NCBI GenBank assembly: GCA_965204745.1
Contig: OZ242010.1
Coordinates: 3,072,001-3,136,000, forward strand
Direction: 5' to 3'
Source: Candidatus Latescibacterota bacterium
GTDB taxonomy: Bacteria > Latescibacterota > UBA2968
DNA: 64,000 nt
The notes under the pieces: generated by a model
What the model was told of the DNA's origin: nothing
The model's database searches: none
The model's input: the letters and a program-made list of their open reading frames with translations, nothing else
Shown here: in pieces, positions 43,968 through 64,000 of the stretch
Position numbering within the stretch: position 1 is the first letter of the stretch
How the letters are laid out: each line of letters starts with the position of its first letter
Made by a program: the position numbers and the translations under genes

Positions 43968-45429
43968 GCGGCCCAACATCCTGTACATCATGACCGACGA
44001 CCACGGCACCGGGGCATTGCGTTGCTACGGCAGTCGGATCAACCAAACCCCCAATCTGGACCGCATCGCCCACGGAGGCACGCGCCTGGACAAGTGTTAC
44101 GTCACCTACTCCCTGTGTTCGCCAAGCCGCGCATCCATCTTGACCGGGAAATACGCCCACCTGCACGGGCAGACGTCGATTGGCGGGAATATCTTCGACG
44201 GGTCCCAGCAAACCTTTCCCCAGTTGTTGCAGGCGGCGGGCTACCAGACCGCGATTGTCGGCAAGTGGCACTTGCACAGCATCCCGACCGGGTTTGACCA
44301 TTACAGCGTGATGTGGGGGCAAGGCGCGTATTTTGACCCGAAGTTCATCGAACCCAGCGCGCATGGCCCGGTGTGGAAAGAGAGCCGCGGGTATTCGACG
44401 GACTTGGTGGTTGACAAGTGCTTGGATTGGCTGGCGGGATGCGCGCTTGACAAACCCTTTCTGCTGTTGTGCCATTTCAAGTCGCCCCACTACAACTGGG
44501 AGCCGGACGAAAAGCACGAGGCGATGTTTCAGGACGAGACGATCCCGGAACCCGAGACCTTTGACCACGCGTTTGGAGACAGTCCGGTTCCGCCCGAGGC
44601 ATTGCAGGTCAAGCTGGAAACCGTGCATGAACAATGGAATATCACGCATTGGGACGAGATGCCCGCAGGGTTGTCGATAGCAGAGCAGAAACGCCGGAAC
44701 TACCAGTACTTCATCAAGGACTACCTGCGCTGTGTGGCATCCGTGGATGATAATGTCGGGCGGCTTTTGGATTATTTGGATGAGCGAGGGTTGACCGACA
44801 ATACGGTTGTGGTCTATACCTCTGACAATGGGATGTTTCAGGGCGAACACGGTTGGGTGGATAAGAAGATGATGTTCGAGGAGAGCCTGCGCGTTCCGTT
44901 TTTGATCCGGTATCCCGGTGAAATCGTAGCCGGGTCGCATGCGGATGCTCTGGCGATCAACCTCGACTACGCGCCGACATTGTTGGAGTACGCGGGGCAA
45001 TCCGTGCCGGCGGATATCCAAGGGCGGAGCCTGTTGCCCGTGCTGAGCGGGAACGCGCCAGCGGATTGGCGCACCGCGTTCTACTACCAGCATTTTGACA
45101 TCCACTCAGATGGCGAGTTGGCAAATTGCGGCGTCCGCACCGAGGAGTTCAAGTTGATCTGGTACAACCACAATTACGACCACTACCAACTGTTCGATTT
45201 GAAAAACGATCCCAGCGAGACGCGAGACGTATCCGAAGACCCCGAATACGCCTCAACCGCGCGCGACATGAAAGCCTTGCTGCAATCAGAACGCGCCAAG
45301 GCGGGCTTGACGGACGCGCTGGAAGATCGAATTTTCAACAGCGAAAACATCCCCCAAACCCGCAACCAGATGAACGCGCTGTTGGCGATGATAGACGCGA
45401 ATACCCGGAAGGCGGAAGGGAGACAGTGA
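43957..45429 (+). CDS. Formylglycine-dependent sulfatase
   Basis: PNILYIMTDD, CSPSRASILTG, GKWHL, YTSDNG, FEESLRVP. Confidence 0.92.
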   Translation: MAARRPNILYIMTDDHGTGALRCYGSRINQTPNLDRIAHGGTRLDKCYVTYSLCSPSRASILTGKYAHLHGQTSIGGNIFDGSQQTFPQLLQAAGYQTAIVGKWHLHSIPTGFDHYSVMWGQGAYFDPKFIEPSAHGPVWKESRGYSTDLVVDKCLDWLAGCALDKPFLLLCHFKSPHYNWEPDEKHEAMFQDETIPEPETFDHAFGDSPVPPEALQVKLETVHEQWNITHWDEMPAGLSIAEQKRRNYQYFIKDYLRCVASVDDNVGRLLDYLDERGLTDNTVVVYTSDNGMFQGEHGWVDKKMMFEESLRVPFLIRYPGEIVAGSHADALAINLDYAPTLLEYAGQSVPADIQGRSLLPVLSGNAPADWRTAFYYQHFDIHSDGELANCGVRTEEFKLIWYNHNYDHYQLFDLKNDPSETRDVSEDPEYASTARDMKALLQSERAKAGLTDALEDRIFNSENIPQTRNQMNALLAMIDANTRKAEGRQ

Positions 45430-45450
45430 TGACGCAGATAAACCGATAAG

Positions 45451-46003
45451 GCGTTTGGTCATTTGATGGCTTAGGTTGCTCTGATGGCATTGACCGAGGG
45501 GACCTATCCCCCGGCCCCTTTCCTACGAGGAAAGGGGAGTAAAGCTCCTTTGATGGCTTATATCTCTGGTTGCTCGGATGGCATTGACCGAGGGCATAAA
45601 GCGATTAAAAATCCCTCATCAATACCCTCGCAAAACCGCTCACCGTTCCCCCCTTCCTCGCAGGAAGGGGGGTTAGGGGGGTAGGTCCCGATATGGCGTT
45701 GACCGAGGGCATAAAGCGATTAAAAATCCCTCATCAATACCCTCGCAAAACCGCTCACAGTTCCCCCCTTCCTCACAGGAAGGGGGGTTAGGGGGGTAGG
45801 TCCCGATATGGCATTGACCGAGGGCATAAAGCGATTAAAAATCCCTCACACCATCCCTCGCAAAACCCATTCGCGTTCCCCCCTTCCTCAAAGGCACAGG
45901 CGTAGCCTACAACGAAGCGAAGCGAGTAACGGGGGTTAGGGGGGCAGGTCCCGATAAGGAGCGACTATTCCAGTTTCTCAAACCGAGAGCATATTCTGCG
46001 ATA
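45451..46003 (-). repeat. TIR-less MITE interior with 115-bp unit triplicated (45578, 45693, 45808)
   Basis: Homologous to the MITE interiors at 2264-2684 and 17387-17821; unit begins atggc(a/g)ttgaccgagggcataaagcg. Confidence 0.85.
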
Positions 46004-46008
46004 AGGAG

Positions 46009-46983
46009 ATGACGATGCTCACCCCCAAGCAGTGCGAATCGTATCGGCGAGATGGCTACCTCTTGGCCCCTGACCTTTTCTCAAAAGACCGACTTCTGCC
46101 AGCCCTTGAAGTCGCAGAACAAAATGCTTATGGCAAATGCTTTGAAGCCTTTAATGCGGAATTGGACGCCGATCCAGAACTCGAGGAGACCTTGACCCGA
46201 CCGACGGGGCGGCGCAGCTTTGGCGGGCCTCGGGCGCGGTTTCACGACATTCCGACCGGTGTCGATGCCATTGATCGGATCATCGAACACGAACCGTTTT
46301 TAGACGCGCTAGCGCAACTCTTGGACACCCCGGACATGCACTACCACCACGGCTTTGTGTACGTCCGCAGCGGGCGTTTGGACCGAGGAACGCCCAAAGA
46401 GCCTTGGGCCGGCTTCCACATCGACTGGGCCAAACCCTTGCTCCCTCCGCATCCAGAATGGCAACGCTACGGTCATATCCAAGCCTGGGTTTATCTGACC
46501 GACAACGACGCGGATTGCGCCCCCGTGCGCGTGTTGCCCGGCGCGCATCGCAAAATGGGCGACCTCATCCGCGACCCAATCGGCACCGAGCACAACTCAT
46601 ATCGCTTTGCCGACATTCGCAATCTTCCGCACAAATTTGAACCGGTTACCGCAACCGGAAAAGCGGGCACCGTACTCTTTTACAGTTCGCACACCCCGCA
46701 TTCGCCACAGCCATTTGCCAACCCGCGCAAACAACGCGCCGTACTCTTTTTCGCAGTGGGACGCAGAGACACCAGCACTTGGACGCTCACGGAAAAGAGA
46801 GACATTCGAGAACGCCAACGCCTGCGCCCCTTCTTGACAAAAACCACAGCGCGAGTTCGCAGCCTCTTTGGCTGGCCCAAACCCGGCGACGCCTTTTACA
46901 CCTCGGAGGCCCTGCACCTCATTCAAAACGCCTATCCAGAAATGGACCTCAGTCCATATCACAAGGAAAGGATTGCCAAGTGA
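46009..46983 (+). CDS. PhyH family dioxygenase
   Basis: YRRDGY, FHID, VLPGAH, GTVLFY...H...R. Confidence 0.8.
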   Translation: MTMLTPKQCESYRRDGYLLAPDLFSKDRLLPALEVAEQNAYGKCFEAFNAELDADPELEETLTRPTGRRSFGGPRARFHDIPTGVDAIDRIIEHEPFLDALAQLLDTPDMHYHHGFVYVRSGRLDRGTPKEPWAGFHIDWAKPLLPPHPEWQRYGHIQAWVYLTDNDADCAPVRVLPGAHRKMGDLIRDPIGTEHNSYRFADIRNLPHKFEPVTATGKAGTVLFYSSHTPHSPQPFANPRKQRAVLFFAVGRRDTSTWTLTEKRDIRERQRLRPFLTKTTARVRSLFGWPKPGDAFYTSEALHLIQNAYPEMDLSPYHKERIAK

Positions 46984-47070
46984 AAAATGCCAACCTCCGG
47001 TACAGACAAGTTCATCTAAATTTTCACACCTCGGAACACTGCCCAAATGTCGGCGGGAAGTTTGACGAGG
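46899..47070 (+). repeat. 172-bp direct repeat, left copy
   Basis: Near-identical to 52818-52989; spans the phyH 3' end and the glycosidase 5' end. Confidence 0.95.
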
Positions 47071-47222
47071 CGTGGGATTTTTCAGAAGGGTTGGCGCCTG
47101 TGAAAATCGGTGGCAAGTGGGGGTTTGGATGGGTTGAAGGTGGCAAGTATGGGTTTATCAACCGAGCGGGTGATGTCGTTATCAATCCGCAATTTGACTC
47201 TGCGGGGTCTTTTTCCAAATGA
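46980..47222 (+). pseudogene. Chimeric ORF: first ~30 codons of the GH151-like gene fused to a WG-repeat tail
   Basis: MKNANLRYRQVHLNFHTSEH...KFDE|AWDFSEGLAPVKIGGKWGF...YGFIN...NPQFDSAGSFSK. Confidence 0.75.
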
Positions 47223-47234
47223 TCGCGGGTTTCT

Positions 47235-47260
47235 GGGCGACGCCTATTCTAAAGTCGCCC
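47235..47260 (+). repeat. Array hairpin R1, GGGCGACGCCTATTCTAAAGTCGCCC
   Basis: 7-bp stem; other copies at 49387, 50844, 52262 and 52502. Confidence 0.9.
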
Positions 47261-47525
47261 CTATTTTTAAGAAAGGAGTGGGTGTGGCGGAAAAGCAGAA
47301 GGATTTGAGGTCTGATATAAAATTAGACCAGTGGAAAAAAGTTGTTGATTTTTATGATTTATGCAACAATATTTTCTTTATCGCACTTGCTTTTGTTTTT
47401 GGACTCAGTAAAGCATCAGGTTGGTCAGTGTTATGGACGGGATGGACTCCTGAGATAGTGGGTAAAGATTGGGAGGAATTGGTAGCATTTGTAGGGTATT
47501 GGTTTGGTGTTTCTCATTTTGGAGG

Positions 47526-48987
47526 AGATGTCGTGTATTTGATGTTTCGTTGACTATTGTTAAACATTGTTGGCTATGCTTGATTGGAAGGAGGTGGGCT
47601 TTGTTGCCCTATTGGAGCAGTTACGTAGCCGGGAAGAGTCGTGCGTTGTGGTTGCCTGGCGATTCGTCGTTGGCGGTGTTAGAGGGCTGGCAGAGCAAGA
47701 CGGGTGCGGCGTCGTGGTTTTCTGTGGCGCAGAGCATGGTGCGGAAGCACCGTGCGAAAAGTCTGTTCTGTCCTTTTGCCATCGGTTCTCTCGTTAGCAC
47801 GGCGAGCAACAAAGCCCTTGTGACGAAGGCGCGGAAGGTGCGTATCTCTCTGTCGGCTGATCAGCGTGCGCTGGTGAAGCATTGGATGGCTGGCAGTCGG
47901 TGGTGGTATAACAAGGCCGTCGAGCTGTACCGTGCAGGCTTCAAAGTGTCGGAGTATGACCTGCGTCGTATTGTCCGTGCGGTCAGTCCCAAGTGGTTTG
48001 CGGATGTTCCGAGCAAGATTCTGTGCGGTGCGATAGCCGATGCTCACCGGGCCAATCAAGCCGTATGGCGTAAGCGAAAGACAGGAGAAAAAGCAGCGTT
48101 GCATTATCGTAGCCGTAAGAATCCTATTCAATCCTTGTCGTTGTGCAATGTGGCGTGGAACAAGGATCGGTCAACGATCTATCCACTCAGTCTGGGACAA
48201 ATCCGCTTATCCCGCCCGGTTCCGGAAGCCCCGAAGGATGGGCGGCTTGTTGTTCATCAGGGCCGGTACTATGTGACCGTGCCCTATTCGAGTCCACGGC
48301 GCGTAGCCGAGAGCCAAGGGCGCGTCGTGGCACTCGATCCTGGTATTCGTCGTTTCTTGACGTTCTATTCTGAAACGGATTGTGGTAAAATTGGCGAAGG
48401 TGATTTTGGTCGCATCCAGCGGTTGTGTGCTCACCTGGATAGTTTGATTGGTCGTATGGTGAAAGCGTGCGGCTTTCTCAAGGTGCGCCTGAAGCGCGCC
48501 ATCGAGCGCCTGCGCTGGCGCATCCGCGACCTCATCGATGAACTTCACAAGCAGGCCGCACGCTGGCTTGTGGACAACTACGATGTCATCCTACTGCCGA
48601 CCTTCGAGACGAGCAAGATGGTGCAACGCGGCAAGCGTCGCCTTCGCCGCAAGTCTGTCCGCTCAATGTTGACTTTCGCCCATTATCGCTTCAAGCAATT
48701 CCTCAAGCACAAGGCTTTCGAGACCGGCAAGTTGGTCTTAGATGTGAATGAGGCATACACGTCCAAAACAGTCAGTTGGACAGGCGAGATTGTGAAGAAC
48801 TTGGGCGGAGCGAAAGTCATCCGTAGCAGAATGGATGGCCATACCATGGATCGAGATATCAATGGCGCACGGGGTATTTTTCTCCGTGCTTTGGGCGATA
48901 CACCCAAGTTGCGTGATTGCCTGGCGTAACTTGCACTGGTTGAACCACTATTGAAAGGTCAATAATGGTCAACAGAAAGGTATCAGG
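47526..48987 (+). mobile_element. Non-autonomous IS607-family element (tnpA mostly deleted, tnpB intact)
   Basis: GG at both junctions, right end ...aaaggtatcaGG; tnpA relic (LDWKEVGFVALLEQL); highly similar to the element at 62257-64000. Confidence 0.8.
47601..48929 (+). CDS. tnpB: RNA-guided endonuclease TnpB (IS607, rearranged-RuvC clade)
   Basis: ALDPG, VILLPTF, VNEAYTSK, DRDINGARGI; AAGGAGGT SD before TTG 47601/47604 (start inferred). Confidence 0.88.
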   Translation: MLPYWSSYVAGKSRALWLPGDSSLAVLEGWQSKTGAASWFSVAQSMVRKHRAKSLFCPFAIGSLVSTASNKALVTKARKVRISLSADQRALVKHWMAGSRWWYNKAVELYRAGFKVSEYDLRRIVRAVSPKWFADVPSKILCGAIADAHRANQAVWRKRKTGEKAALHYRSRKNPIQSLSLCNVAWNKDRSTIYPLSLGQIRLSRPVPEAPKDGRLVVHQGRYYVTVPYSSPRRVAESQGRVVALDPGIRRFLTFYSETDCGKIGEGDFGRIQRLCAHLDSLIGRMVKACGFLKVRLKRAIERLRWRIRDLIDELHKQAARWLVDNYDVILLPTFETSKMVQRGKRRLRRKSVRSMLTFAHYRFKQFLKHKAFETGKLVLDVNEAYTSKTVSWTGEIVKNLGGAKVIRSRMDGHTMDRDINGARGIFLRALGDTPKLRDCLA

Positions 48988-49242
48988 TGGAATTATGTAT
49001 TTTTTTGACTTCTTGTCTAACCGGCGAGAAAACCGTGTAGAGAGACTGCGCGAAGAGGCGCGAGAGGCGGAGCGTCAGGATTTGCGACGGGGGTTGGAGA
49101 AGGAGTTTGCGGGTGATCAGGGAGGTATGGAAAAGATCGAGAAGGTTTTTAATGGACGTTAACAGGTTGTAATGATGTGTATTTAGAGAATATCCTCTCA
49201 GGTGGGTTTTCTGTTGTCCATCTGGGGGGTATTTTTTAATAG

Positions 49243-49373
49243 GGGATTATTCCTGGTTTTGGAGAAGAAGCCTTGGCGCGGGTGAAAATCGGTGCCATCT
49301 TTGGGCATATCAACCCGAAAGACGAGATCATTATCAACCCCCAATTTGACGATGCGGGGGATTTTTCCAAATG
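49243..49373 (+). pseudogene. WG-repeat peptide remnant (paralog of 52307-52489)
   Basis: FGEEALARVKIGAIFGHINPKDEIIINPQFDDAGDFSK*. Confidence 0.65.
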
Positions 49374-49386
49374 ATCGCGGGTTTCT

Positions 49387-49412
49387 GGGCGACGCCTATT
49401 CTAAAGTCGCCC
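49387..49412 (+). repeat. Array hairpin R2
   Basis: Identical to R1 including upstream aatgatcgcgggtttct. Confidence 0.9.
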
Positions 49413-49752
49413 ACAATTTCACAGGATTAGGGAGATATTTTTATGGCAATAACGACAAGAGGGAGTAAGATCGAATTTGATAGGGCTATCGGAGAAGTGA
49501 AAAATGACGAGTCTCTGTATATTGCCCAAGAGAAATCCGCTGAGTCAGGTTTTGATGGATATAGACTTGTGCATAAGGATTATGATAGGAAGTCTGATGG
49601 TTTGTTGTTTCTCACTGATGGCAAGAATTTTAGGACATGGGTCAATGATCCTAGTGAAGTGGAGTTGTTGGTGTATGAGATGTTTATGAGGGATAATAGA
49701 GAAATTATTAGAACTCCACAGATTAGCATCCCTTCAAAGACTATTCCTGTTA

Positions 49753-50736
49753 ATGCGAATTAAGAGTAGAAAGCGAGTAAGAAGCAAGCCGCGGTCAATC
49801 GCCCAAAGACATGAACGAGTAAGCCCTCATAGGATCGTACCCGAGACGCCATCGAGATGTTCGTCTTTCGTTCAATCCAACTGAACAAGGCCTCAATCGG
49901 CTGTCGTATGCTCGAAACCGCCCGAGAATAGTCTTTTTCGGCTTCGGTCAGGCTTTCTTGTCCCTTCTTGCGCTTCACCGGCGTCTCGAAGATCAGGTTC
50001 TGCTGTTTGCTAAGCGTGTCTTTTAAGGGCTGATCGGCGTAGATTTTATCGCCGTAGAGGTGTCCATCACGCAAAACGGGTAAGACTTGTCGCAAAGCGG
50101 TCAGGTCATGCTCTGCTGCACCTGTCAAGCCGATGTACTCTGCTTTCGGGAGGCCGTTCTCACGGTCTTGTGCGACAATGTGCAGTTTGGTGCCGTAATA
50201 CCACATCTTTTTGGAAGCGCAGCGGCCTTTGTTGGCCAGTTGTTCTTCGGCCACACACGCCTGACCGCTGCGTGCCGATTGTGCCATGACAATCGGCATG
50301 GAATCCACCAAGTAGGTGTGTTCAGAGAGATCGGTTGCGGGACTGTCCTTTTGGATTTGTTCAATCAATGGCGCGAAGACCACACACAAGCGGTTCAACC
50401 GCTGGATATAGCCTGCATAAGTGGGCAGATGGGGAAACCAGTCGGAAAGATGATCCTTGGTATAGGTATAAATCGCCTTGATCTGCGTGTGCTGTTGCAT
50501 GATCCCAAACAAATAGATCGTCAGCACTTCTTCATCTGTGAAGGTCGGCGTATCGTTATTGCTCATGCGTTCCGTATAAAACCACAGATGCTTTTGGTCA
50601 TACTGCTGACAAATATAGACATACAAGTGAATGAGTTTATCTTGCCAATCCATCGCGTGCTCCTTCCTTTAAGGGTGAAATGACTGAGCCCTCAAGAAAA
50701 GACAAGTACGCGATGGATTCAACTCTTAATTCGCAT
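49753..50736 (-). mobile_element. IS982-family insertion sequence
   Basis: 15-bp perfect TIR ATGCGAATTAAGAGT / ACTCTTAATTCGCAT; 5-bp TSD TGTTA. Confidence 0.9.
49760..50653 (-). CDS. IS982-family DDE transposase
   Basis: VDSMPI, YYGTKLH, GDKIY, RQPIEALFS. Confidence 0.9.
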   Translation of the reverse strand: MDWQDKLIHLYVYICQQYDQKHLWFYTERMSNNDTPTFTDEEVLTIYLFGIMQQHTQIKAIYTYTKDHLSDWFPHLPTYAGYIQRLNRLCVVFAPLIEQIQKDSPATDLSEHTYLVDSMPIVMAQSARSGQACVAEEQLANKGRCASKKMWYYGTKLHIVAQDRENGLPKAEYIGLTGAAEHDLTALRQVLPVLRDGHLYGDKIYADQPLKDTLSKQQNLIFETPVKRKKGQESLTEAEKDYSRAVSSIRQPIEALFSWIERKTNISMASRVRSYEGLLVHVFGRLTAACFLLAFYS

Positions 50737-50843
50737 TGTTAATAAGAAAGGAAAAATTGTAAGTGTTTTCAAAGCCATTTTTAAGGTTTTCCCTTCTTTG
50801 TTTCGTTTTTTAGGTGTAGGGAAATAGTGTACGGTAAGGCCAC

Positions 50844-50869
50844 GGGCGACGCCTCTTTCAAAGTCGCCC
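50844..50869 (+). repeat. Array hairpin R3 (variant loop)
   Basis: gggcgacgcctctttcaaagtcgccc plus T-run; preceded by gtaaggccac as at R4. Confidence 0.85.
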
Positions 50870-51031
50870 CATTTTTTTATTTTGCAGTAAGCGTTGTAAG
50901 CGTTGATTCTGTCGCCTGGTGTTATCCGTATTGGGCGATCTCGTTTGCTATGGGTTTGGTGCGTCTTTGATGCAGAATAAGGGCTTGTGGGGCGTGCCTG
51001 ACAAACGCCCCAATTTCACAAGGAGAGGGAT

Positions 51032-52066
51032 ATGAGATTTTTTACAGTGGTGGCAATCGCAGTGTTCGCAGTGTTGGCAACAGCGGGTATCTCACACGGT
51101 TACGTGAACGGGTGGGAGAAGTGCATGGTCAATGAAGAAGAGTGGTATATTGATTGTGTTTTGATCGTTCCGATTCCTTTGAGTATGTATGACAGGAGTC
51201 CTTTCGATTATGGGGCTTTACATTATGAGGGGTTTGTTCATATACGTGAAGCGTATGATGGAGGCGAGAGACTACCTTCATACAGACCGTTGGAAGTTGT
51301 TAAAGGTCTTCGTTTTTATGAACATCAAGACCACACAGGTTCTGGACATCGTCGGTATTTAACTTTCAAGCCTGTGTTCAACAGTGACGGATACACTTCC
51401 GTGACAGACTACGAAGGAAATTACCATCGAGATATCAAGTGCGTTGAGATCGAAGAAGTGTCGGAGGTGGTCAGACCAGGACCAGGCGAAGACCTTGAGT
51501 TTTATTGTAAGAAAGACCGCCTTGTTGACAAGTTCAAGCCTTTGTATGAACAGAGAACTCCAGATACCGTTCATAATACGAACAACGTCTATGAAGGAAT
51601 GGTTTATTTAAGTCGCATTCAACGAGGTTTCACGCCTGACACTGTTGGGCGAAATCCTGTCATCAAGATTCTGACAAATAACAGGAACGGGAAATCTCTT
51701 GTCGCTATTGATCCAACCGTTTTTTACAAACGAGAAGCTGTCGGCGATAAATACGGTATGATGAGTCTATTCTCGCGGTTTAATGGAGGAGACAACCCTC
51801 AACACAATGTTTATACTCTGGAGAGTTTTATCGAGATGTCTGAAGCGGAGTATATGAGATTCAGAATGGTGTTCAGGCTCTACGACAAACGCGCTTGGCA
51901 CATGGTCGGTCAGACCGCCGCGCCCATACCAGAACCAACTCCGATAGATACAACTCTCACTGGAGATTTGAACGGCGACGGAGTTGTCAACATTGCGGAC
52001 TTCCTGATCCTTGCCGAGTGGTTTGGTTGCGAAACAGGTCAAAGTCCACCCAACTGCGAAAAATGA
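51032..52066 (+). CDS. Secreted protein with C-terminal dockerin/EF-hand-like motif
   Basis: Signal peptide, Pro/Thr linker, GDLNGDGVVNIADFLILAEWFG; AAGGAG RBS. Confidence 0.75.
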   Translation: MRFFTVVAIAVFAVLATAGISHGYVNGWEKCMVNEEEWYIDCVLIVPIPLSMYDRSPFDYGALHYEGFVHIREAYDGGERLPSYRPLEVVKGLRFYEHQDHTGSGHRRYLTFKPVFNSDGYTSVTDYEGNYHRDIKCVEIEEVSEVVRPGPGEDLEFYCKKDRLVDKFKPLYEQRTPDTVHNTNNVYEGMVYLSRIQRGFTPDTVGRNPVIKILTNNRNGKSLVAIDPTVFYKREAVGDKYGMMSLFSRFNGGDNPQHNVYTLESFIEMSEAEYMRFRMVFRLYDKRAWHMVGQTAAPIPEPTPIDTTLTGDLNGDGVVNIADFLILAEWFGCETGQSPPNCEK

Positions 52067-52261
52067 AAATGACACACAATCCTCCCCGTTCTCCGCTCGG
52101 TGATGCAACACGGGATTGACCTGTCGGCTGTTTACAGTTGCTACGGCCGGTGTTGAACCCGACGATACGAAAATTTTTGGTCAATTGACAAAAAATTCGT
52201 CCATTTTACGGCTTTATGTTTTGAGCGCGTGCTGATCGAGGGGTGAGTCAGTAAAGGCCAC

Positions 52262-52287
52262 GGGCGACGCCTATTCTAAATTCGCCC
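52262..52287 (+). repeat. Array hairpin R4
   Basis: gggcgacgcctattctaaattcgccc plus T-run. Confidence 0.85.
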
Positions 52288-52306
52288 CATTTTTTTTGAG
52301 GCAGCT

Positions 52307-52489
52307 ATGTTGAAGTATCTGTTGGCAGTGGTGATTTTGATGCTCGCAACACTCCTCGCTCCGCGTCCTATTTTTGGAGAAGCCGCATTGCCGCGGGTGA
52401 AAATCGGTGGCAAGTATGGGTTTATCAATAAGGTCGGCGAGATCGTTATCAAACCGCAATTTGACGATGCGGGGTCTTTTTCCAAATGA
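52307..52489 (+). CDS. Small secreted peptide with a single WG (KWG) repeat
   Basis: Signal peptide plus VKIGGKYGFINKVGEIVIKPQFDDAGSFSK. Confidence 0.6.
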   Translation: MLKYLLAVVILMLATLLAPRPIFGEAALPRVKIGGKYGFINKVGEIVIKPQFDDAGSFSK

Positions 52490-52501
52490 TCGCGGGTTTC
52501 T

Positions 52502-52527
52502 GGGCGACGCCTATTCTAAAGTCGCCC
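52502..52527 (+). repeat. Array hairpin R5
   Basis: Identical to R1 and R2 with the same upstream context. Confidence 0.9.
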
Positions 52528-52548
52528 ATTTTTTACAAGGAGCAGAAT

Positions 52549-52797
52549 ATGCGTCACCGAATTTTGTCAACAGGCTTGTGTATGACCGCGCTCACCGTGC
52601 TTGTCTTTGTGGTCTATCGGGTCGCGGTGCAACCCCATGCCCAAGGTAGCGCGACCACAGGGAAATTTCCCCGATTGCTGGACAGCGTGCGAAATATACA
52701 CAAGGTTGGGTTGACAACCTTTGAAGGAAAGACCGTAAGACGCCTGTTGGGGCGAATAATCATTCTCCCCAACATGAGGGCGCAGTCTTGTCGATAG
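52549..52797 (+). CDS. Small hypothetical protein with N-terminal hydrophobic segment (possibly truncated)
   Basis: AAGGAG RBS directly after R5. Confidence 0.45.
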   Translation: MRHRILSTGLCMTALTVLVFVVYRVAVQPHAQGSATTGKFPRLLDSVRNIHKVGLTTFEGKTVRRLLGRIIILPNMRAQSCR

Positions 52798-52817
52798 CAC
52801 GACCTACGCTGAAGTGT

Positions 52818-52989
52818 CACCTCGGAGGCCCTGCACCTCATTCAAAACGCTTACCCAGAAATGGACCTCAGTCCATATCACAACGAAAGGATTGCCAAGT
52901 GAAAAATGCCAACCTCCGGTACAGACAAGTTCATCTGGATTTTCACACCTCGGAACACTGCCCGAATGTCGGCGGGAAGTTCGACGAGG
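52818..52989 (+). repeat. 172-bp direct repeat, right copy
   Basis: Matches 46899-47070 with a few substitutions. Confidence 0.95.
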
Positions 52990-54887
52990 ATCAGTTCATC
53001 GGCACCCTGCGAAAAGGGCATGTGGATTCCGTGACGATCTTTGCCCAGTGCCATCACGGGTGGTGCTATTACCCCACGAAAACGGATATGCAGCACCCCA
53101 ACTTGCAAACCGATCTGGTCGGTCGGATGCTGGCCGCCGCGAAACAGGCCGACATCAACATGCCCGTGTACATCACCGTGCAATGGCACGAAAAAGCCGC
53201 ACGCGAACACCCCGAATGGCGCGCACGAAGGCCCGATGGCGGGTACCTGGGGCGGCCCGACAAACACCCCCATACGCCTTTGCCCCACGGCGGCTGGTAT
53301 CGCTTGTGTTGCAACACGCCCTACCTGGACGCGAGCGTGTTGCCCGTGTTGACCGAAGTGATGGAACTGTACGCGCCCTCGGGCATTTTTCTCGACATTA
53401 CCGGCGAATACGAATGCACATGCGATTGGTGCGTGGCGAGTATGAAAGAGAAAGGGCTGGATCCAAACCGCGCTGCGGATCGGGCGATTCACGCACGGGA
53501 TGTGTACAAGGAGTATTTGACCAAGACCACGGACATCGTTTGGAGTCGCAATCCGGATGCGACGATTTATCACAATGGGAGCGACAAAAAGGGCCGCCAC
53601 GACTTGTATCCCTACTGGTCGCACCACGAGATCGAATCGCTGCCGACCGGGATGTGGGGCTACAATCACTTTCCGACCAATGCGCGGTATTTCACCCATT
53701 TGCCCGATTGCAATGTGATCGCGCAAACCGGCAAGTTCCACCGGATGTGGGGCGAGTTTGGCGGCTTCAAAAATCCGGTCGCCTTGGAATACGAGGTCGG
53801 GCAGATCATTTCATTGAATTGCCGCTGCATGGTGGGCGATCAACTCCATCCAGAAGGCGAGATGGATGAAGAGACCTATCGCATCATCGGTTCGGCGTAT
53901 CAGCGCGTTGAAGAACGCGAGCCATGGCTGGTGGGGGCCGAGCATGTGGTGGATGTGGGCATTTTGGCCCCTTCGGCCGTGCATAAGAACCCGGCGTTGG
54001 AAGACAGCGAAGTGGGCGCGGGCCTGATGCTGATGGAAAACCAAATTCCGTTTTTGATGCTGGACGAGACGATGGATTTATCGCCCTATCAACTGCTGAT
54101 TTTGCCCGATAGCGTGCGCGTGGATGTCGCGCTGAAAGCAAAGCTCGATGCGTTTTTGGCGGATGGCGGCAAGTTGTTGTCCTCTGGCGAGAGCGGCTTG
54201 GATCCCGATGGCATGGGTTTTGTGTACGATATCGGCGCGGATTATGTCGGGCCATCTCCCCATGATGTGGAATACGTGGTGGTCGGGGACGAGATCGCCG
54301 CGAATTTGGTGCGGACCCCGTTCTTGGTGTACGAATCTGGCGTGGCGACAAAGGCGACGGATGGCGACGTGTTGGCGGAAGCGTGGAAACCGTATTTTAA
54401 CCGGACCTACGGCGCGTTCTGCTCCCACCGGAACACGCCGTTTGAGGGCGCTGCGGGTTGGCCCGCGGCGATTCGCAAGGGCAATGTCATTCACATTGCA
54501 CAACCGATTTTTCGAGTCTATGACGATCAGGGCATGCAGTTGCACCGCGATTTGGTGAAGAATTGTCTGGACTTGCTCTACGATGATCCCTTGTTGCAGG
54601 TGTCCCTGCCGTCGTGTGGCCGCGCAACTGTGACGCGGCAACCGCGAGCGGGAAATCGGCTGATCGTGCATTTGATGTACGCCAACCCCATCAAGCGGGG
54701 CGATACAGAGGTGATCGAAGATATCATTCCCCTGTATGGCGTTGCGGTCTCCGTAAAAACGGATCGCGCCGTGTCTCGCGTGTCTCTCGCGCCGGAAAAT
54801 GAGGACCTCGATTTTGAGATTGCCAACGGCCGCGTGTCCTTTGTCGTACCCAAGGTCGAGATGAATCAACTCGTGGCGATTGAATAG
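52899..54887 (+). CDS. Glycoside hydrolase, GH151 alpha-L-fucosidase-like, with beta-galactosidase trimerisation-like domain
   Basis: RQVHLDFHTS, FAQCHHGWCYYP, IFLD, EIESLPTG.WGY, TGKFH..WGEFGGFK, GDQLHP. Confidence 0.78.
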   Translation: MKNANLRYRQVHLDFHTSEHCPNVGGKFDEDQFIGTLRKGHVDSVTIFAQCHHGWCYYPTKTDMQHPNLQTDLVGRMLAAAKQADINMPVYITVQWHEKAAREHPEWRARRPDGGYLGRPDKHPHTPLPHGGWYRLCCNTPYLDASVLPVLTEVMELYAPSGIFLDITGEYECTCDWCVASMKEKGLDPNRAADRAIHARDVYKEYLTKTTDIVWSRNPDATIYHNGSDKKGRHDLYPYWSHHEIESLPTGMWGYNHFPTNARYFTHLPDCNVIAQTGKFHRMWGEFGGFKNPVALEYEVGQIISLNCRCMVGDQLHPEGEMDEETYRIIGSAYQRVEEREPWLVGAEHVVDVGILAPSAVHKNPALEDSEVGAGLMLMENQIPFLMLDETMDLSPYQLLILPDSVRVDVALKAKLDAFLADGGKLLSSGESGLDPDGMGFVYDIGADYVGPSPHDVEYVVVGDEIAANLVRTPFLVYESGVATKATDGDVLAEAWKPYFNRTYGAFCSHRNTPFEGAAGWPAAIRKGNVIHIAQPIFRVYDDQGMQLHRDLVKNCLDLLYDDPLLQVSLPSCGRATVTRQPRAGNRLIVHLMYANPIKRGDTEVIEDIIPLYGVAVSVKTDRAVSRVSLAPENEDLDFEIANGRVSFVVPKVEMNQLVAIE

Positions 54888-54966
54888 GGCTTCTTCCCTT
54901 TTGTGTTTCTGTGCCGCTCGTGGCTTTTGTGTTTCTGTGCCTTTTGTGGCTAAAAAGGAGATCACC

Positions 54967-55176
54967 ATGCAGACCAAACTCACGTTGCAGATGGATGATG
55001 AATTGATCGCACGGGCCAAAGCCCATGCAAAGAAGCGCGGAAAGTCGGTCTCGCAACTCGTTGCAGATTATTTTCGCATTCTGGAAAAAGTGGAACAAAA
55101 ACCGCCACCGAAAAAAAAATACGGCCCGATTACAGAGTCCTTGAGGGGGGCATTGCGCGGGGCAAAATCGGTTTGA
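54967..55176 (+). pseudogene. RHH antitoxin (DUF6364-like), 3' end cut by a MITE fragment; toxin absent
   Basis: MQTKLTLQMDDELIARAK...SVSQLVADYF; stop lies inside the MITE-derived ggtttgagaaa. Confidence 0.65.
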
Positions 55177-55265
55177 GAAATTGGAATAGTCACTCCTTAT
55201 CGGGACCTACCCCCCTAACCCCCCTTGCCTCTTACGCCTCTCACCTCTTACGTCTCACCTCTTAC
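55170..55265 (+). repeat. MITE fragment followed by heptamer repeats
   Basis: ggtttgagaaa...ctccttatcgggacctaccccctaaccccc matches ~2347-2400. Confidence 0.75.
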
Positions 55266-56667
55266 CGCCTTTTACCGGCACTTTGAGCACGGCGTAAAAA
55301 TTGGCGTATTGCCGACGCATTTCTCGGCGAATGATCAGGCCGACTTCGTCGCCGGGTTTCACCCCGGCCCATGCGTCTTCGTATTCTTCTATCGACCGGA
55401 TGGGTCTGCGGTTGATCTGGCGAATCACATCCCACCTCCGCAGGCCCGCCGCTTCGGCCGGGCTTCCCGATCTCACATCGGTGATGAGCATGCCGGTTTG
55501 CGCGTGATACCCCAGTTGCCGCGCAATTGCGGAGGTCAGTTCTTGAACATCCATGCCGAGGTCGGGTGCTCCCATCCCCTTTAGGGCATTAAAATCCCCC
55601 ACTGTCACGCGCAGGGTTTCGCGTTGCCCATTCCGAATCACTTCAATCGCCACCTCCGCGCCTGGCGGGGTTCGCGCAATGCGCGTGAGAAATTCATCGG
55701 CATTGGCGATCTCGCGGTTGTTTAACCCCACGATCACATCCCCGGGCTGTAGGCCCGATCGCTCGGCAAACGCGCCCACCTCTCCGATCAGCGCGCCCTT
55801 GTTCACGCTGAGGCGAAGGGCTTCGACAAGCCCTTTGCCGAGGTCTTGCACCGCCACGTCCAAATACCCGCGCTTCACCGTTCCGCGCGCGATGATTTGT
55901 TGCATGATATTGCGCGCCATGTTGATCGGCACGGCCAAGCCAATGCCCTGATTGCCCCCACTGCGCGACAAAATCGCCGTGTTGATTCCCACCAGTTCCC
56001 CGCGCAAATTCACCATTGCCCCGCCGCTGTTGCCCGGGTTGATCGCCGCGTCGGTTTGAATAAAATCCTCGTAATCCAACAGATCCAAATTGCCCCGCCC
56101 TATCGCGCTCACAATGCCGTAGGTCACGGTATGGCGCAAGCCGTAAGGATTGCCGATTGCCAGCACCCAGGCGCCGACTTTCAACTCGTCCGAATCGCCC
56201 ATCTCGAGCGCGGGCAGGTCGCGCCCGTCAATTTTGAGGACCGCGACATCGCTTTGCGGATCCGTGCCGACCAGCGTTGCGCCAAAGGTTCTGCCGTCGC
56301 TCAGTTCCACTTCAATGGCATCGGCTCGTGCGATGACGTGATCATTGGTCAAGATATACCCATCCCGCGAAACCAGGACGCCTGATCCCAAACCCTGTTC
56401 CCGCTGTTCTCGCCGATATTGCAGGCGGCCCCCAAAGAAATGATCGAAAAACGGATCGCCCGTCGATCTTCGCACCCCGACGACCACATCTCGTTTGTTG
56501 ACTATCGCCACCACGCCCGGATTGACTTCGGACGCCACCGCGGCAAAGGCTTCGCTGAATTTTTCCATTTGCGCGAGTGTGGCTCGATGGTCAGGGTCAA
56601 TGGCTGCCTCGACCTGCAAAACCATCAGCCCGACGAGCAATGTCCATGTCCATCGCAACATACTCAC
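55255..56667 (-). CDS. Do/DegQ-family serine protease with two PDZ domains
   Basis: GLGSG, TNDHV, SDVAV, QTDAAINPGNSGG. Confidence 0.92.
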   Translation of the reverse strand: MSMLRWTWTLLVGLMVLQVEAAIDPDHRATLAQMEKFSEAFAAVASEVNPGVVAIVNKRDVVVGVRRSTGDPFFDHFFGGRLQYRREQREQGLGSGVLVSRDGYILTNDHVIARADAIEVELSDGRTFGATLVGTDPQSDVAVLKIDGRDLPALEMGDSDELKVGAWVLAIGNPYGLRHTVTYGIVSAIGRGNLDLLDYEDFIQTDAAINPGNSGGAMVNLRGELVGINTAILSRSGGNQGIGLAVPINMARNIMQQIIARGTVKRGYLDVAVQDLGKGLVEALRLSVNKGALIGEVGAFAERSGLQPGDVIVGLNNREIANADEFLTRIARTPPGAEVAIEVIRNGQRETLRVTVGDFNALKGMGAPDLGMDVQELTSAIARQLGYHAQTGMLITDVRSGSPAEAAGLRRWDVIRQINRRPIRSIEEYEDAWAGVKPGDEVGLIIRREMRRQYANFYAVLKVPVKGGKR

Positions 56668-62315: not shown

Positions 62316-62891
62316 ATGCCTTATGTAAATACTCGCAAAGCGGTTGCTTTGCTCGGTGTTCATCCGAATACGTTGCGTAAGTGGGCGAATGACGGTCGGA
62401 TTGAGCATATTCGCAGTCTAGGCGGACGGAGACTTTACAATGTCGATGCGTTCTTGCGGGAAGAAGTTGGCGTTGCCGTTGTGTGCTATGCACGGGTTAG
62501 CAGTGATGCCCAAAAAGACGACTTGCGAGGGCAAGTTGCACTCTTGCGATCCCGTTATCCCGGCGCAGAGATCGTCAAAGACATTGGCGGGGGCCTCAAC
62601 TAAAAGCGGAAGGGACTTGTCGCCCTACTGGAACGCTTACACAGCGGAGAAAAGTTGCGAATTGTGGTTGCCCACAAAGACCGCCTTGCACGGTTCGGCT
62701 TTGAACTTGTTGACTGGCTGGCAAAGCAAAACGGGGGCGAGGTCGTGGTTCTCGACGAGTCAAAGTGTCGTCCAGAACAAGAACTCACACAGGATATTTT
62801 ATCCCTTCTCGATACGTTCTCTTGCAGGCTGTCCGGCCTCCGCAAGTACCGTGACAAAATCAAGGAAGATAAGAATCTATCCGAACGCTGA
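62316..62891 (+). pseudogene. tnpA: IS607 serine-recombinase TnpA with in-frame TAA at 62601-62603
   Basis: MerR-like HTH, YARVSS, GGGLN*KRKGL, HKDRLARFGF, DILSLLDTFSCRLSGLRKY, all in one frame. Confidence 0.88.
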
Positions 62892-63993
62892 TCAGCGCGC
62901 AAAGTTCAGGCATTGGATGGTCGCTACCCGCTGGTGGTATAACGAGGCTGTGTCATTGTACCGTGCGGGATTTTCTTTGTCTGAATACGATATGCGACGT
63001 GTTGTCCGTGCGGTGAGTCCTGCATGGTTTGCCGATGTGCCGAGCAAGATTCTTTGCGGTGCGGTCGCCGATGCTTACAAGGCAAACCAGGCGGTCTGGC
63101 GTAAGCGTAAAGCATTCGAGAAGAAAGGGATAAAGCGGAAAGTGCTCTTGCAGTTCCGTAGTCGTAAAGCACCTATCCAGTCCTTGTATTTGTGCCATGT
63201 GGCTTGGAATAAGGCATTGACGACCTTTTATCCTCTTAGCCTTGGCAATGTGCGTTTGTCTGAGCCCTTGTCAGTTGTTCCGAAGGATGGCCGTTTGGTC
63301 AGTTACAATGGCCGGTACTCTGTGACCGTGCCTCATTCAAGTCCACGGCACGTAGCCGAGAACCAAGGGCGTGTCGTGGCGCTTGATCCTGGTATTCGCA
63401 GTTTCTTGACGTTCTTTTCTGAAACAGATTGCGGTAAGATTGGCGAAGGTGATTTTGGTCGTATTCAGCGTTTGTGTATTCATCTTGACAGCTTGATCGG
63501 TCGCATGACAAAGGCCATCGGCTTTCGCAAGGTGCGTTTGAAGCGTGCCTGCCATCGCATGCGGTGGCGCATCCGAGACTTGATCGATGAACTGCACAAA
63601 CAGACTGCGCGCTGGCTGGTGGACAACTACGATGTGATTCTGTTGCCCACGTTTGAGACGACCGAGATGGTTGTGCGCGGTAAGCGGTGCCTTCGCCGTA
63701 AGTCTGTCCGCTCAATGTTGACTTTTGCCCATTATCGCTTCAAGCAGTTTCTCAAGCACAAGGCGTTTGAAACTGGCAAGTTGGTCTTGGATGTGAACGA
63801 GGCTTACACATCCAAGACAGTCAGTTGGACAGGTGAGATTGTAAAAAACTTGGGCGGAGCGAAAGTCATTCGTAGCAGAAAAGATGGTCATACCATGGAT
63901 CGAGATATAAACGGCGCACGGGGTATTTTTCTCCGTGCTTTGGTGGATACACCCAAGTTGCGGAACTGTTTGGATGCAACTTGCACTGGTTGA
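62617..63993 (+). CDS. tnpB: RNA-guided endonuclease TnpB (IS607, rearranged-RuvC clade)
   Basis: KIRIYP, ALDPG, VILLPTF, VNEAYTSK, DRDINGARGI; start uncertain (TTG 62617 or GTG 62851). Confidence 0.88.
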   Translation: MSPYWNAYTAEKSCELWLPTKTALHGSALNLLTGWQSKTGARSWFSTSQSVVQNKNSHRIFYPFSIRSLAGCPASASTVTKSRKIRIYPNADQRAKFRHWMVATRWWYNEAVSLYRAGFSLSEYDMRRVVRAVSPAWFADVPSKILCGAVADAYKANQAVWRKRKAFEKKGIKRKVLLQFRSRKAPIQSLYLCHVAWNKALTTFYPLSLGNVRLSEPLSVVPKDGRLVSYNGRYSVTVPHSSPRHVAENQGRVVALDPGIRSFLTFFSETDCGKIGEGDFGRIQRLCIHLDSLIGRMTKAIGFRKVRLKRACHRMRWRIRDLIDELHKQTARWLVDNYDVILLPTFETTEMVVRGKRCLRRKSVRSMLTFAHYRFKQFLKHKAFETGKLVLDVNEAYTSKTVSWTGEIVKNLGGAKVIRSRKDGHTMDRDINGARGIFLRALVDTPKLRNCLDATCTG

Positions 63994-64000
63994 ACACTTA

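Follow-up and report, generated by a model that had tools for sequence, protein, structure and literature searches.

The genome of a sponge-associated Candidatus Latescibacterota bacterium (assembly GCA_965204745.1) is a single contig of 5.48 Mb, and the window analysed here is a stretch of 64,000 nucleotides of this contig (OZ242010.1, positions 3,072,001 to 3,136,000). Between the PhyH and GHL6 genes of the window lies an inserted patchwork of 5.7 kb that consists of orphan genes, gene fragments and insertion sequences (ISs), and that is studded with copies of a 26-nt hairpin. An initial annotation had regarded the hairpin as a recombination site of integron-like gene cassettes and/or as a portable terminator, processing or translation signal. 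Our work favours the latter idea: We put at roughly 55% the probability that the hairpin belongs to a species-specific terminator or leader module which also offers recombination or template switching a short patch of homology. The closely related genomes are labelled as Candidatus Latescibacterota metagenome-assembled genomes, and the public runs that contain the stretch include sponge and marine metagenomes as well as runs with coded organism labels. Positions refer to the window unless they are given as genome positions.

Composition of the inserted block

The hairpin, GGGCGAC-N12-GTCGCCC, combines a perfect 7-bp stem (folding energy -12.6 kcal/mol) with a 12-nt loop. A motif search with up to three mismatches returned exactly five matches in the window, all on the plus strand and precisely where they had been reported before: R1 (47235..47260), R2 (49387..49412), R3 (50844..50869), R4 (52262..52287), and R5 (52502..52527). 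These copies have 0, 0, 3, 1 and 0 mismatches, respectively, with the R4 mismatch in the 3' arm and the loop variant CTCTTTCAAA in R3, and they are spaced by 2152, 1457, 1418, and 240 nt. In the control, 100 out of 100 shuffled sequences gave 0 matches.

The block is bracketed by a 172-bp direct duplication (96% identity), which was aligned with the related genomes G016 and G018. Its left copy (46899..47070) is followed, on the plus strand like all features unless stated otherwise, by a WG-repeat tail fragment (47071..47222) that continues the reading frame of the duplicated GHL6 N-terminus, with a TTTGACGAGG microhomology at the point of fusion. Behind R1 lies the gene for a small membrane protein of 141 amino acids (GC content 0.395) that is broken into two parts (47278..47525 and 48985..49162) by an IS encoding only TnpB (~47526..48984; OrfB_IS605 and Cas12f1-like TNB domains). 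A separate terminator-like hairpin with a T-run (49194..49229) and a second WG-gene tail fragment that has neither a start nor a signal peptide (49251..49376) precede R2. The next gene, a 131-aa orphan (GC content 0.39), is split as well: its first part (49443..49747) and its second part with the stop codon (50737..50827) are separated by an IS5-like DDE element on the minus strand (~49748..50736; inverted repeats 49752-49771 and 50718-50737). R3 is followed by a leader of ~160 nt (50870..51031) that ends in a hairpin of a second type and a Shine-Dalgarno (SD) site, and by the gene for a secreted 344-aa orphan protein with a dockerin-like C-terminus (51032..52066). Between R4 and R5, there is a mini WG gene of 60 codons (52307..52489) which looks like the 361-aa type of WG lipoprotein gene minus its internal repeats; its head and its tail match those of such a gene elsewhere in the genome. 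Finally, R5 precedes a chimeric open reading frame (ORF) of 82 codons (52549..52797), of which the first ~48 codons match the signal region of giant secreted proteins (1530-1993 aa; homology up to 52694) before it enters the frame of a TnpB remnant. This remnant, a decayed TnpB 3' end with downstream right-end sequence (52680..52816), reaches up to the right copy of the duplication (52818..52989), which continues into the intact GHL6 gene (52899-54887).

The block can be divided into seven units, and only three of them are whole genes (141, 131, and 344 aa). The remaining four are fragments or chimeras, i. e. two WG tails or mini-genes, the GHL6-WG fusion, and the chimera of giant-protein head and TnpB. 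The initial annotation had described a regular repeat-gene array: the hairpins are indeed real, but several of the supposed genes are fragments, and both the bracketing duplication and the TnpB remnant at the right end had escaped attention. The lower GC content of the genes was confirmed (0.29-0.49 for the three whole genes as compared to 0.565 for the genome), as were the two ISs, for which contigs of other public runs provide the empty sites.

The hairpin is species-specific and part of a stop-to-start module

At up to four mismatches, the genome contains 13 copies of the hairpin, and five of them are clustered in a stretch of 5.3 kb in the block. All copies are singletons, and their 5' flanks are either AAAGGCCAC or GGGTTTCT. 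No copy with up to three mismatches was detected in 40 relatives, 20 of them from the same genus, and a degenerate version of the motif gave no match in viral, metagenome and species-representative genome collections. A scan of positions 44000-56000 against Rfam revealed no family at E<=1. The 26-nt hairpin is thus species-specific and, among the collections searched, known from this sponge-associated genome alone.

The position of the hairpin relative to the adjacent genes is strikingly constant. The distance from the stop codon is 12 nt at all four WG tails, and four other copies follow an upstream ORF or ORF remnant at 9-26 nt. Downstream, a start codon is found at a distance of 17-31 nt in ten copies. 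In the window, a start codon with an AGGAG-like site lies 17-30 nt behind R1, R2, R4 and R5, as had been noted for most copies; at R3, the start is 162 nt away. A T-run (at least five T in eight nucleotides) stands behind 8 of the 13 copies, including all window copies except R2, and at 4.5% of 200,000 random positions. A GC-rich stem and a T-run behind a co-directional stop codon are the hallmarks of an intrinsic terminator; a terminator scan restricted to loops of 3-8 nt did not list the 26-nt hairpin. A scan for consensus promoters found none that overlaps the hairpin and only 9-of-12 matches, which lie before R1, R2 and R5 within the coding part of the WG tail, with a consensus that may not suit this phylum. 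Moreover, pairing of the loop with the SD site and a -10 box within the loop were considered and dropped, as both were inconsistent across copies.

Outside the window, the hairpin always has the same orientation as the downstream gene. Three of these copies precede giant-protein genes, one each a WG lipoprotein gene, a Ser/Thr kinase gene and a dockerin-repeat gene, and two the long leader that is also present behind R3. The giant-gene paralogs of G016 bear a terminator-hairpin leader of their own that differs from the module. Several giant paralogs of this genome retain this ancestral leader, including a TTGACA/TATATT-type promoter (genes at genome positions 3254277, 3306435 and 4562484). In the genes at 3240777, 3245766 and 4298486, the hairpin module is found in place of the ancestral leader, exactly up to the ATG. 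We therefore conclude that the module behaves as a portable leader.

The looser hairpin reported near 50989 turned out to be real (50989-51011) and to belong to a second type with six copies in the genome. The two types agree in the GGGCG...CGCCC stem ends, in the GCCT with which the loop begins, and in the SD stretch, and their 5' flanks are similar, but they differ in the inner stem pairs. MAFFT places their stems in different registers, and a single covariance model for both was not built. The composite pattern of hairpin and SD site occurs six times in this genome and not at all in the 40 relatives.

The long leader (~140-160 nt) in which such a hairpin stands beside the SD site was found in five copies plus a partial one (window 50870-51031; genome positions 2877530, 2877778, 2880725 and 3970635), in front of several genes for secreted proteins. 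It is absent from the 20 other genomes of the genus and has no match in Rfam. The leader is a candidate cis-regulatory 5' untranslated region (UTR).

The flanks of the hairpin have been reassorted

The initial annotation had distinguished two upstream contexts in the window, and this was borne out: R1, R2 and R5 share the WG tail and a common 15 nt, and R3 and R4 share AAGGCCAC. In the whole set of 13 copies, the left flanks comprise the WG tail (four copies), a second gene tail (three), two further shared contexts (two copies each), and two unique sequences; the right flanks comprise the giant-protein head (four), the long leader (three), the WG head (two), and four unique sequences. Left and right flanks are joined in as many as 11 combinations. 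In many pairs of copies the homology is limited to ~8-10 nt on each side of the hairpin (~9+26+9 nt). This short shared core in combination with the number of flank combinations leads to the conclusion that exchanges took place in or right beside the core. The idea of a portable terminator, processing or translation signal agrees with the stop and start spacing, the T-runs, the use of the hairpin between ordinary genes, and the reassorted flanks that mark the junctions.

Comparison with related genomes reveals two insertions

The duplicated 172 bp comprise the end of the PhyH-family gene (28 codons) and the beginning of the gene for the GHL6-family glycosidase (57 codons), with a GTGA stop/start overlap between them. 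In the closest relatives, G018 and G016 (GHL6 93% and 91% identical), PhyH directly adjoins GHL6 without any insert. At 15 other loci of the genus, a sulfatase gene adjoins GHL6 and PhyH is missing; the 17 loci compared are those with a full-length match among the 20 other genus genomes searched. It follows from these arrangements that the intergenic site was hit at least twice and that the 5.7-kb block is lineage-specific among the genomes searched. The two copies of the duplication differ at seven sites, most of them in the half that has lost its function in the respective copy, a pattern that would fit divergence in place after an old event.

A second hairpin locus of the genome has the order oxidoreductase gene, hairpin, WG gene, hairpin, kinase gene, second-type hairpin, and helicase gene. 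In G016, the oxidoreductase and helicase genes are only 95 bp apart and the block with the hairpins, the WG gene and the kinase gene is absent; the hairpin-bounded block of ~3 kb is therefore also an insertion. On the left, this block starts in the tail remnant of another gene, ~45 nt before the hairpin, and on the right it ends just past the module of hairpin and SD site.

The kinase of the second locus (L013:4788-6368, genome 4212788-4214368) represents a family in which an N-terminal domain of ~300 aa is conserved and the C-termini vary. This Ser/Thr kinase family is patchily distributed (12 of 25 genomes searched), forms tandem arrays, as with six genes in 15 kb in G010 (3684836-3699106), and matches the PADLOC kinase models mad6 and PD-T4-6.

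Contigs of independent metagenomes contain the block

Contigs from four other public runs that belong to four studies could be placed on the stretch. Matches without any mismatch cover 49384-49747 joined to 50737-50865, 50988-52278, and 51720-52506, and a match with two mismatches covers 47231-47525 joined to 48985-49193. The right junction is bridged by contigs spanning 52649-53300 and 52743-53300. An assembly chimera had been named as one of the findings that would overturn the array; given these independent matches, the interior of the block is therefore not a chimera. The TnpB element is precisely absent in the runs X1, X3 and X5 (joint 47525->48985), and the same is true for the IS5-like element in X1 and X3 (joint 49747->50737). 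The two IS insertions are thus recent and occurred after the block had been assembled.

Other apparent joints were rejected. The joints 49413->50876, 49423->50844, 52514->50860, 52528->50871, and 52297->50896 have sides of at most 25 nt where given, and they are as paralogous hairpin copies would yield. The joint 49367->52417 in X5 (side of 36 nt), together with the lack of a contig over 51040-51947 in this run, might point to a strain that lacks the middle units; it was set aside, as the joint involves repeated sequence, is out of the WG register and was placed at 90% likeness.

No dedicated recombinase accompanies the hairpins

As stated in the initial annotation, there is no attC box: neither RYYYAAC nor GTTRRRY is found at a distance of up to 70 nt from the five copies. 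Likewise, no tyrosine integrase, reverse transcriptase (RT) or Cas1 gene was found in the window. A gene that had been missed is that for an IS607-type serine recombinase with an in-frame stop (~62478-62846). In the whole genome, a search for a recombinase that co-occurs with the arrays came back empty-handed: The two tyrosine recombinases (PF00589; genome positions 676610 and 2802802) lie at distances of more than 300 kb from every hairpin copy, the six serine recombinases all adjoin TnpB genes and are therefore of the IS607 type, the single RT and the single Cas1 genes are both far from the hairpins, and no Y1 transposase (PF01797) was detected in a search whose control was positive in 6 of 14 known genomes.

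Several known classes of repeats were discarded. An identity with the ends of IS200/IS605/IS607 transposons is ruled out by the distances of 266 and 403 nt at which the copies at 47235 and 49387 lie outside of the TnpB element. A CRISPR array does not fit with the uneven spacing, and the CRISPR repeat of the genome (~1458780) is unrelated. The array to which this repeat belongs is very large; it starts at ~1458780 near the Cas1 gene at 1473440, and one 24-mer of the repeat occurs 192 times at a spacing of ~71-72 nt.

A model for the assembly of the patchwork

From comparative sequence analysis we infer both an RNA function of the hairpin and a mechanism for the exchanges. The hairpin would be the stem-loop of a short intergenic signal of ~45-60 nt in total, made up of ~9 nt, the hairpin, and then either a T-run or the ribosome-binding stretch AAnTTTCACAAGGAG. 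At the level of the RNA, copies of this signal with a T-run may act as terminators or attenuators, and copies in which the stem-loop abuts the SD site as 5'-UTR hairpins. The copies in the block probably came in with gene pieces that carry the same hairpin elsewhere, i. e. the tails and the head of WG lipoprotein genes and the head of the giant-protein genes. As the only sequence shared between them, the 26-44 nt of the hairpin copies could then have served as patches of homology at which left and right flanks were swapped, either by ectopic homologous recombination or by template switching of the replication machinery at a hairpin that stalls the fork. Both routes would make do with the machinery of the host, without a dedicated recombinase. 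Template switching would fit with the microhomology at the left junction and with the flanking 172-bp duplication. Over time, a hyperplastic patchwork would have grown at an insertion hot spot which the two ISs entered later.

Several observations speak against this model. The upstream breakpoints of the inserted blocks do not coincide with the hairpin but precede it by 45-165 nt and fall within gene tails; the left boundary of the 5.7-kb block is the microhomology at 47070, in a gene tail. No strain-level exchange at a hairpin was seen in the four other runs, in which the two ISs are the sole robust polymorphisms, and the contigs of these runs break at R1, R2, R3 and R5. The shared 26-44 bp are at the low end for recombination of the RecA type. 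With respect to the proposed RNA function, five of the 13 copies have no T-run and run directly into AAnTTTCACAAGGAG. A loop of 12 nt is long for an intrinsic terminator; moreover, the loop is the same in eight copies, and a subfamily of three copies deviates at the same three loop positions. This conservation points to sequence-specific recognition or to very recent copying, not to a plain terminator. Three stem variants exist, two of which break a pair and one of which forms a G-U pair, and there are no compensatory double changes within the stems of the 13 copies. Finally, none of the 24 public runs listed as containing the stretch is an RNA run, and termination or processing are thus deduced from the DNA.

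Alternative explanations and known systems

The conserved loop is the starting point for an explanation that we regard as rather unlikely: The hairpin could be the site of a sequence-specific regulator, either a DNA operator or a 5'-UTR RNA element, that co-regulates accessory genes for secreted and surface proteins, and it would have spread by selection for joining the regulon. The identity of the loop in 8 of 13 copies despite unrelated flanks, the position 17-31 nt before ten start codons of mostly secreted or membrane proteins, the replacement of the native leader of three giant-protein genes, and the five copies without a T-run would all make sense for such a site. An operator leaves unexplained, however, the excess of T-runs and the constant 12 nt behind the WG stop codons. 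In addition, several copies precede fragments or genes for non-secreted proteins such as the kinase, no candidate regulator was identified, and no promoter consensus lies over the hairpin, save the 9-of-12 match in the WG coding tail. For the terminator or leader module that we prefer, the conserved 12-nt loop goes beyond what a plain terminator would have, and protein binding remains a candidate role. Less probable still is that the core of ~45 nt is a tiny non-autonomous mobile element resembling REP sequences or miniature inverted-repeat transposable elements (MITEs), which inserts between genes that merely appear to be delimited by it. Such an element would be species-specific, it would leave pairs of copies with just ~9+26+9 nt in common, and it would be at home in a genome in which other families of short hairpin repeats abound, with hundreds of copies. 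Yet the genome has no Y1/RAYT transposase and only 13 copies, and these display neither a GTAG-type 5' tetranucleotide nor doublets or target-site duplications. Four copies share the WG tail and others the second gene tail, indicating that they were copied along with gene ends, and no empty site that lacks the hairpin alone was found.

We consider it very improbable that a true site-specific cassette system is at work in which an unrecognised recombinase moves hairpin-bounded genes as circles. The same-strand layout of repeats and low-GC orphan genes had suggested this idea, and it could also account for the two inserted blocks that begin and end near modules and for the reassorted flanks. However, the tyrosine recombinases are more than 300 kb away, the serine recombinases stand beside TnpB genes, the RT and Cas1 genes are remote, and a Y1 transposase is missing; there are no attC boxes, four of seven units are fragments, the borders of the blocks and their breakpoints lie in gene tails off the hairpin, and no robust excision or hairpin-to-hairpin joint is left. 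The likeness to integron cassettes is that small, unrelated and often orphan genes form an array on the same strand, with a structured repeat behind each of them. Here, in contrast, there are no IntI near the array and no R''/R' boxes, the repeat has 26 nt rather than being an imperfect palindrome of 57-141 nt, and the units are not complete ORFs precisely bounded by sites. An integron cassette array is thus not supported, and neither is the original idea of an integron-like cassette system. The least probable explanation, and an extremely improbable one, is that the block arose in the assembly from collapsed or mis-joined repeats. It is true that the block is full of repeats (hairpins, WG tails, two ISs, the 172-bp duplication) at which short-read contigs break, and that the left junction at 47070 is not bridged among the contig matches listed. 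But contigs of different studies match the interior and also span the right junction, the pattern of the seven differences in the duplication fits divergence in place, and the genome is one contig of 5.48 Mb.

A terminator or leader module shares features with well-known types of stem-loops. With intrinsic terminators and intercistronic stem-loops it has in common the GC-rich 7-bp stem, the T-run in 8 of 13 copies, and the position 9-26 nt behind co-directional stop codons; the 12-nt loop, the conservation of the entire sequence including the loop across unrelated contexts, and the five copies without a T-run are different. The REP, BIME and REPIN sequences and NIME-type repeats of Neisseria are species-specific extragenic hairpins behind stop codons that can stabilise mRNA or terminate transcription and act as substrates for rearrangements. 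REP/RAYT systems are defined by high copy numbers, a conserved 5' tetranucleotide, and inverted doublets. The hairpin studied here resembles these repeats in being species-specific, extragenic and located behind stop codons, but its copies number only 13, a RAYT, a GTAG head and doublets are all missing, and the 12-nt loop is unusually conserved. The abundant REP-like families of the genome have sequences unlike the 26-nt hairpin.

The closest described analogue, as judged by organisation, appears to be the PeSLs (promoter-early stem-loops) of T4-type phages. The paper on these elements describes them as 'mobile regulatory cassettes' in which a stem-loop terminator and a promoter flank orphan genes, and reports exchanges between the motifs as well as mini-circles, with no dedicated recombinase known and short homology proposed as the basis; in 2010, such shuffling was without evidence in cellular organisms according to the same paper (PMC2839356). 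Both systems have a short, conserved, intergenic and GC-rich stem-loop terminator motif beside small orphan genes in a hyperplastic region, and close relatives differ by insertions, deletions or replacements at the motif regions; here, two blocks are absent in the closest relatives and the flanks are reassorted. The PeSL as described there has a strong sigma-70 promoter, whereas none overlapped our hairpin in the consensus scan. Moreover, the phage genomes undergo very active recombination, in contrast to a bacterial chromosome with many units that are gene fragments, and mini-circles were shown for PeSLs, whereas nothing comparable was seen here, where short contigs alone were compared.

One may speculate that the hairpin is a PeSL-like mobile regulatory cassette in a bacterial chromosome, an idea that is possible but for the time being tentative. 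A hairpin with an SD or terminator module, newly arisen in or acquired by one species, would have been pasted before unrelated accessory genes in place of their native leaders, and would have become a linker for excising, stacking and moving orphan genes and gene pieces between hot spots without a dedicated recombinase. If the module is indeed the point of exchange, short regulatory signals can link modular gene shuffling in a cellular genome and not just in T4-type phages, and this would hint at the way in which uncultured symbionts of sponges assemble and renew their sets of secreted and surface proteins. If the module is merely a terminator that travelled with duplicated gene ends, the locus is nothing but an ordinary insertion hot spot in decay. 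Either way, the module is a compact natural terminator-plus-ribosome-binding unit.

Orphan genes, insertion sequences and other repeats

The 344-aa and 131-aa proteins have no match in the 20 other genomes of the genus. In a set of 5.8 billion proteins, the 344-aa protein has one relative (45% identity), and the sole other match of the 131-aa protein is its own uninterrupted form (P0004) on a different contig of 14,558 bp. A search of the ESM Atlas with the 344-aa protein gave weak dockerin-type leads only (0.85). Scans of the cassette proteins with PHROGs and PADLOC revealed nothing; only the kinase of the other hairpin locus matched generic kinase defence models. In the wider population, the three low-GC orphan genes are intact.

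The TnpB remnant at the right end of the block (52680-52816) is homologous to three full loci (genome positions 92800, 2052896, and 4481037), lacks ~40 nt before its end and terminates exactly at the 172-bp duplication; its downstream right-end sequence may possibly represent an omega-RNA. The TnpB element of the block (~47526-48984) has a copy of 97% identity at genome position 754665. An IS607-type element is located at 62478-64000 of the window; its serine recombinase frame holds a TAA stop, and a TnpB gene ~80% identical to that of the block follows. The IS5-like element is present in 14 full copies in the genome, including that of the window. A further 69 short matches (~70-90 nt) cover its left end alone and 18 its right end alone (the ends in the window are 49752-49820 and 50697-50738); these short matches represent solo ends or derivatives of the MITE type.

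In the window, three tandem units of 115 nt (45578-45922), each with a hairpin CCCCCCTTCCTCGCAGGAAGGGGGG, separate the sulfatase and PhyH genes. Together with its variants, this hairpin is found in hundreds of copies throughout the genome, which has no Y1/RAYT gene; the family is thus REP-like.

The 141-aa gene has a paralog in the genome (2874955-2876806), and both are broken at the same codon, between …HFGG and GGIMYFF…. The window copy carries the element encoding only TnpB, and the paralog carries an element with an IS607-type serine recombinase and TnpB (~79% identical). Uninterrupted forms of both genes occur in other assemblies (P0006 and P0007, the latter encoded on a contig of 168 kb). 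The insertion of ISs at the same codon of the two paralogs would suggest a strict choice of the target or TnpB-guided homing.

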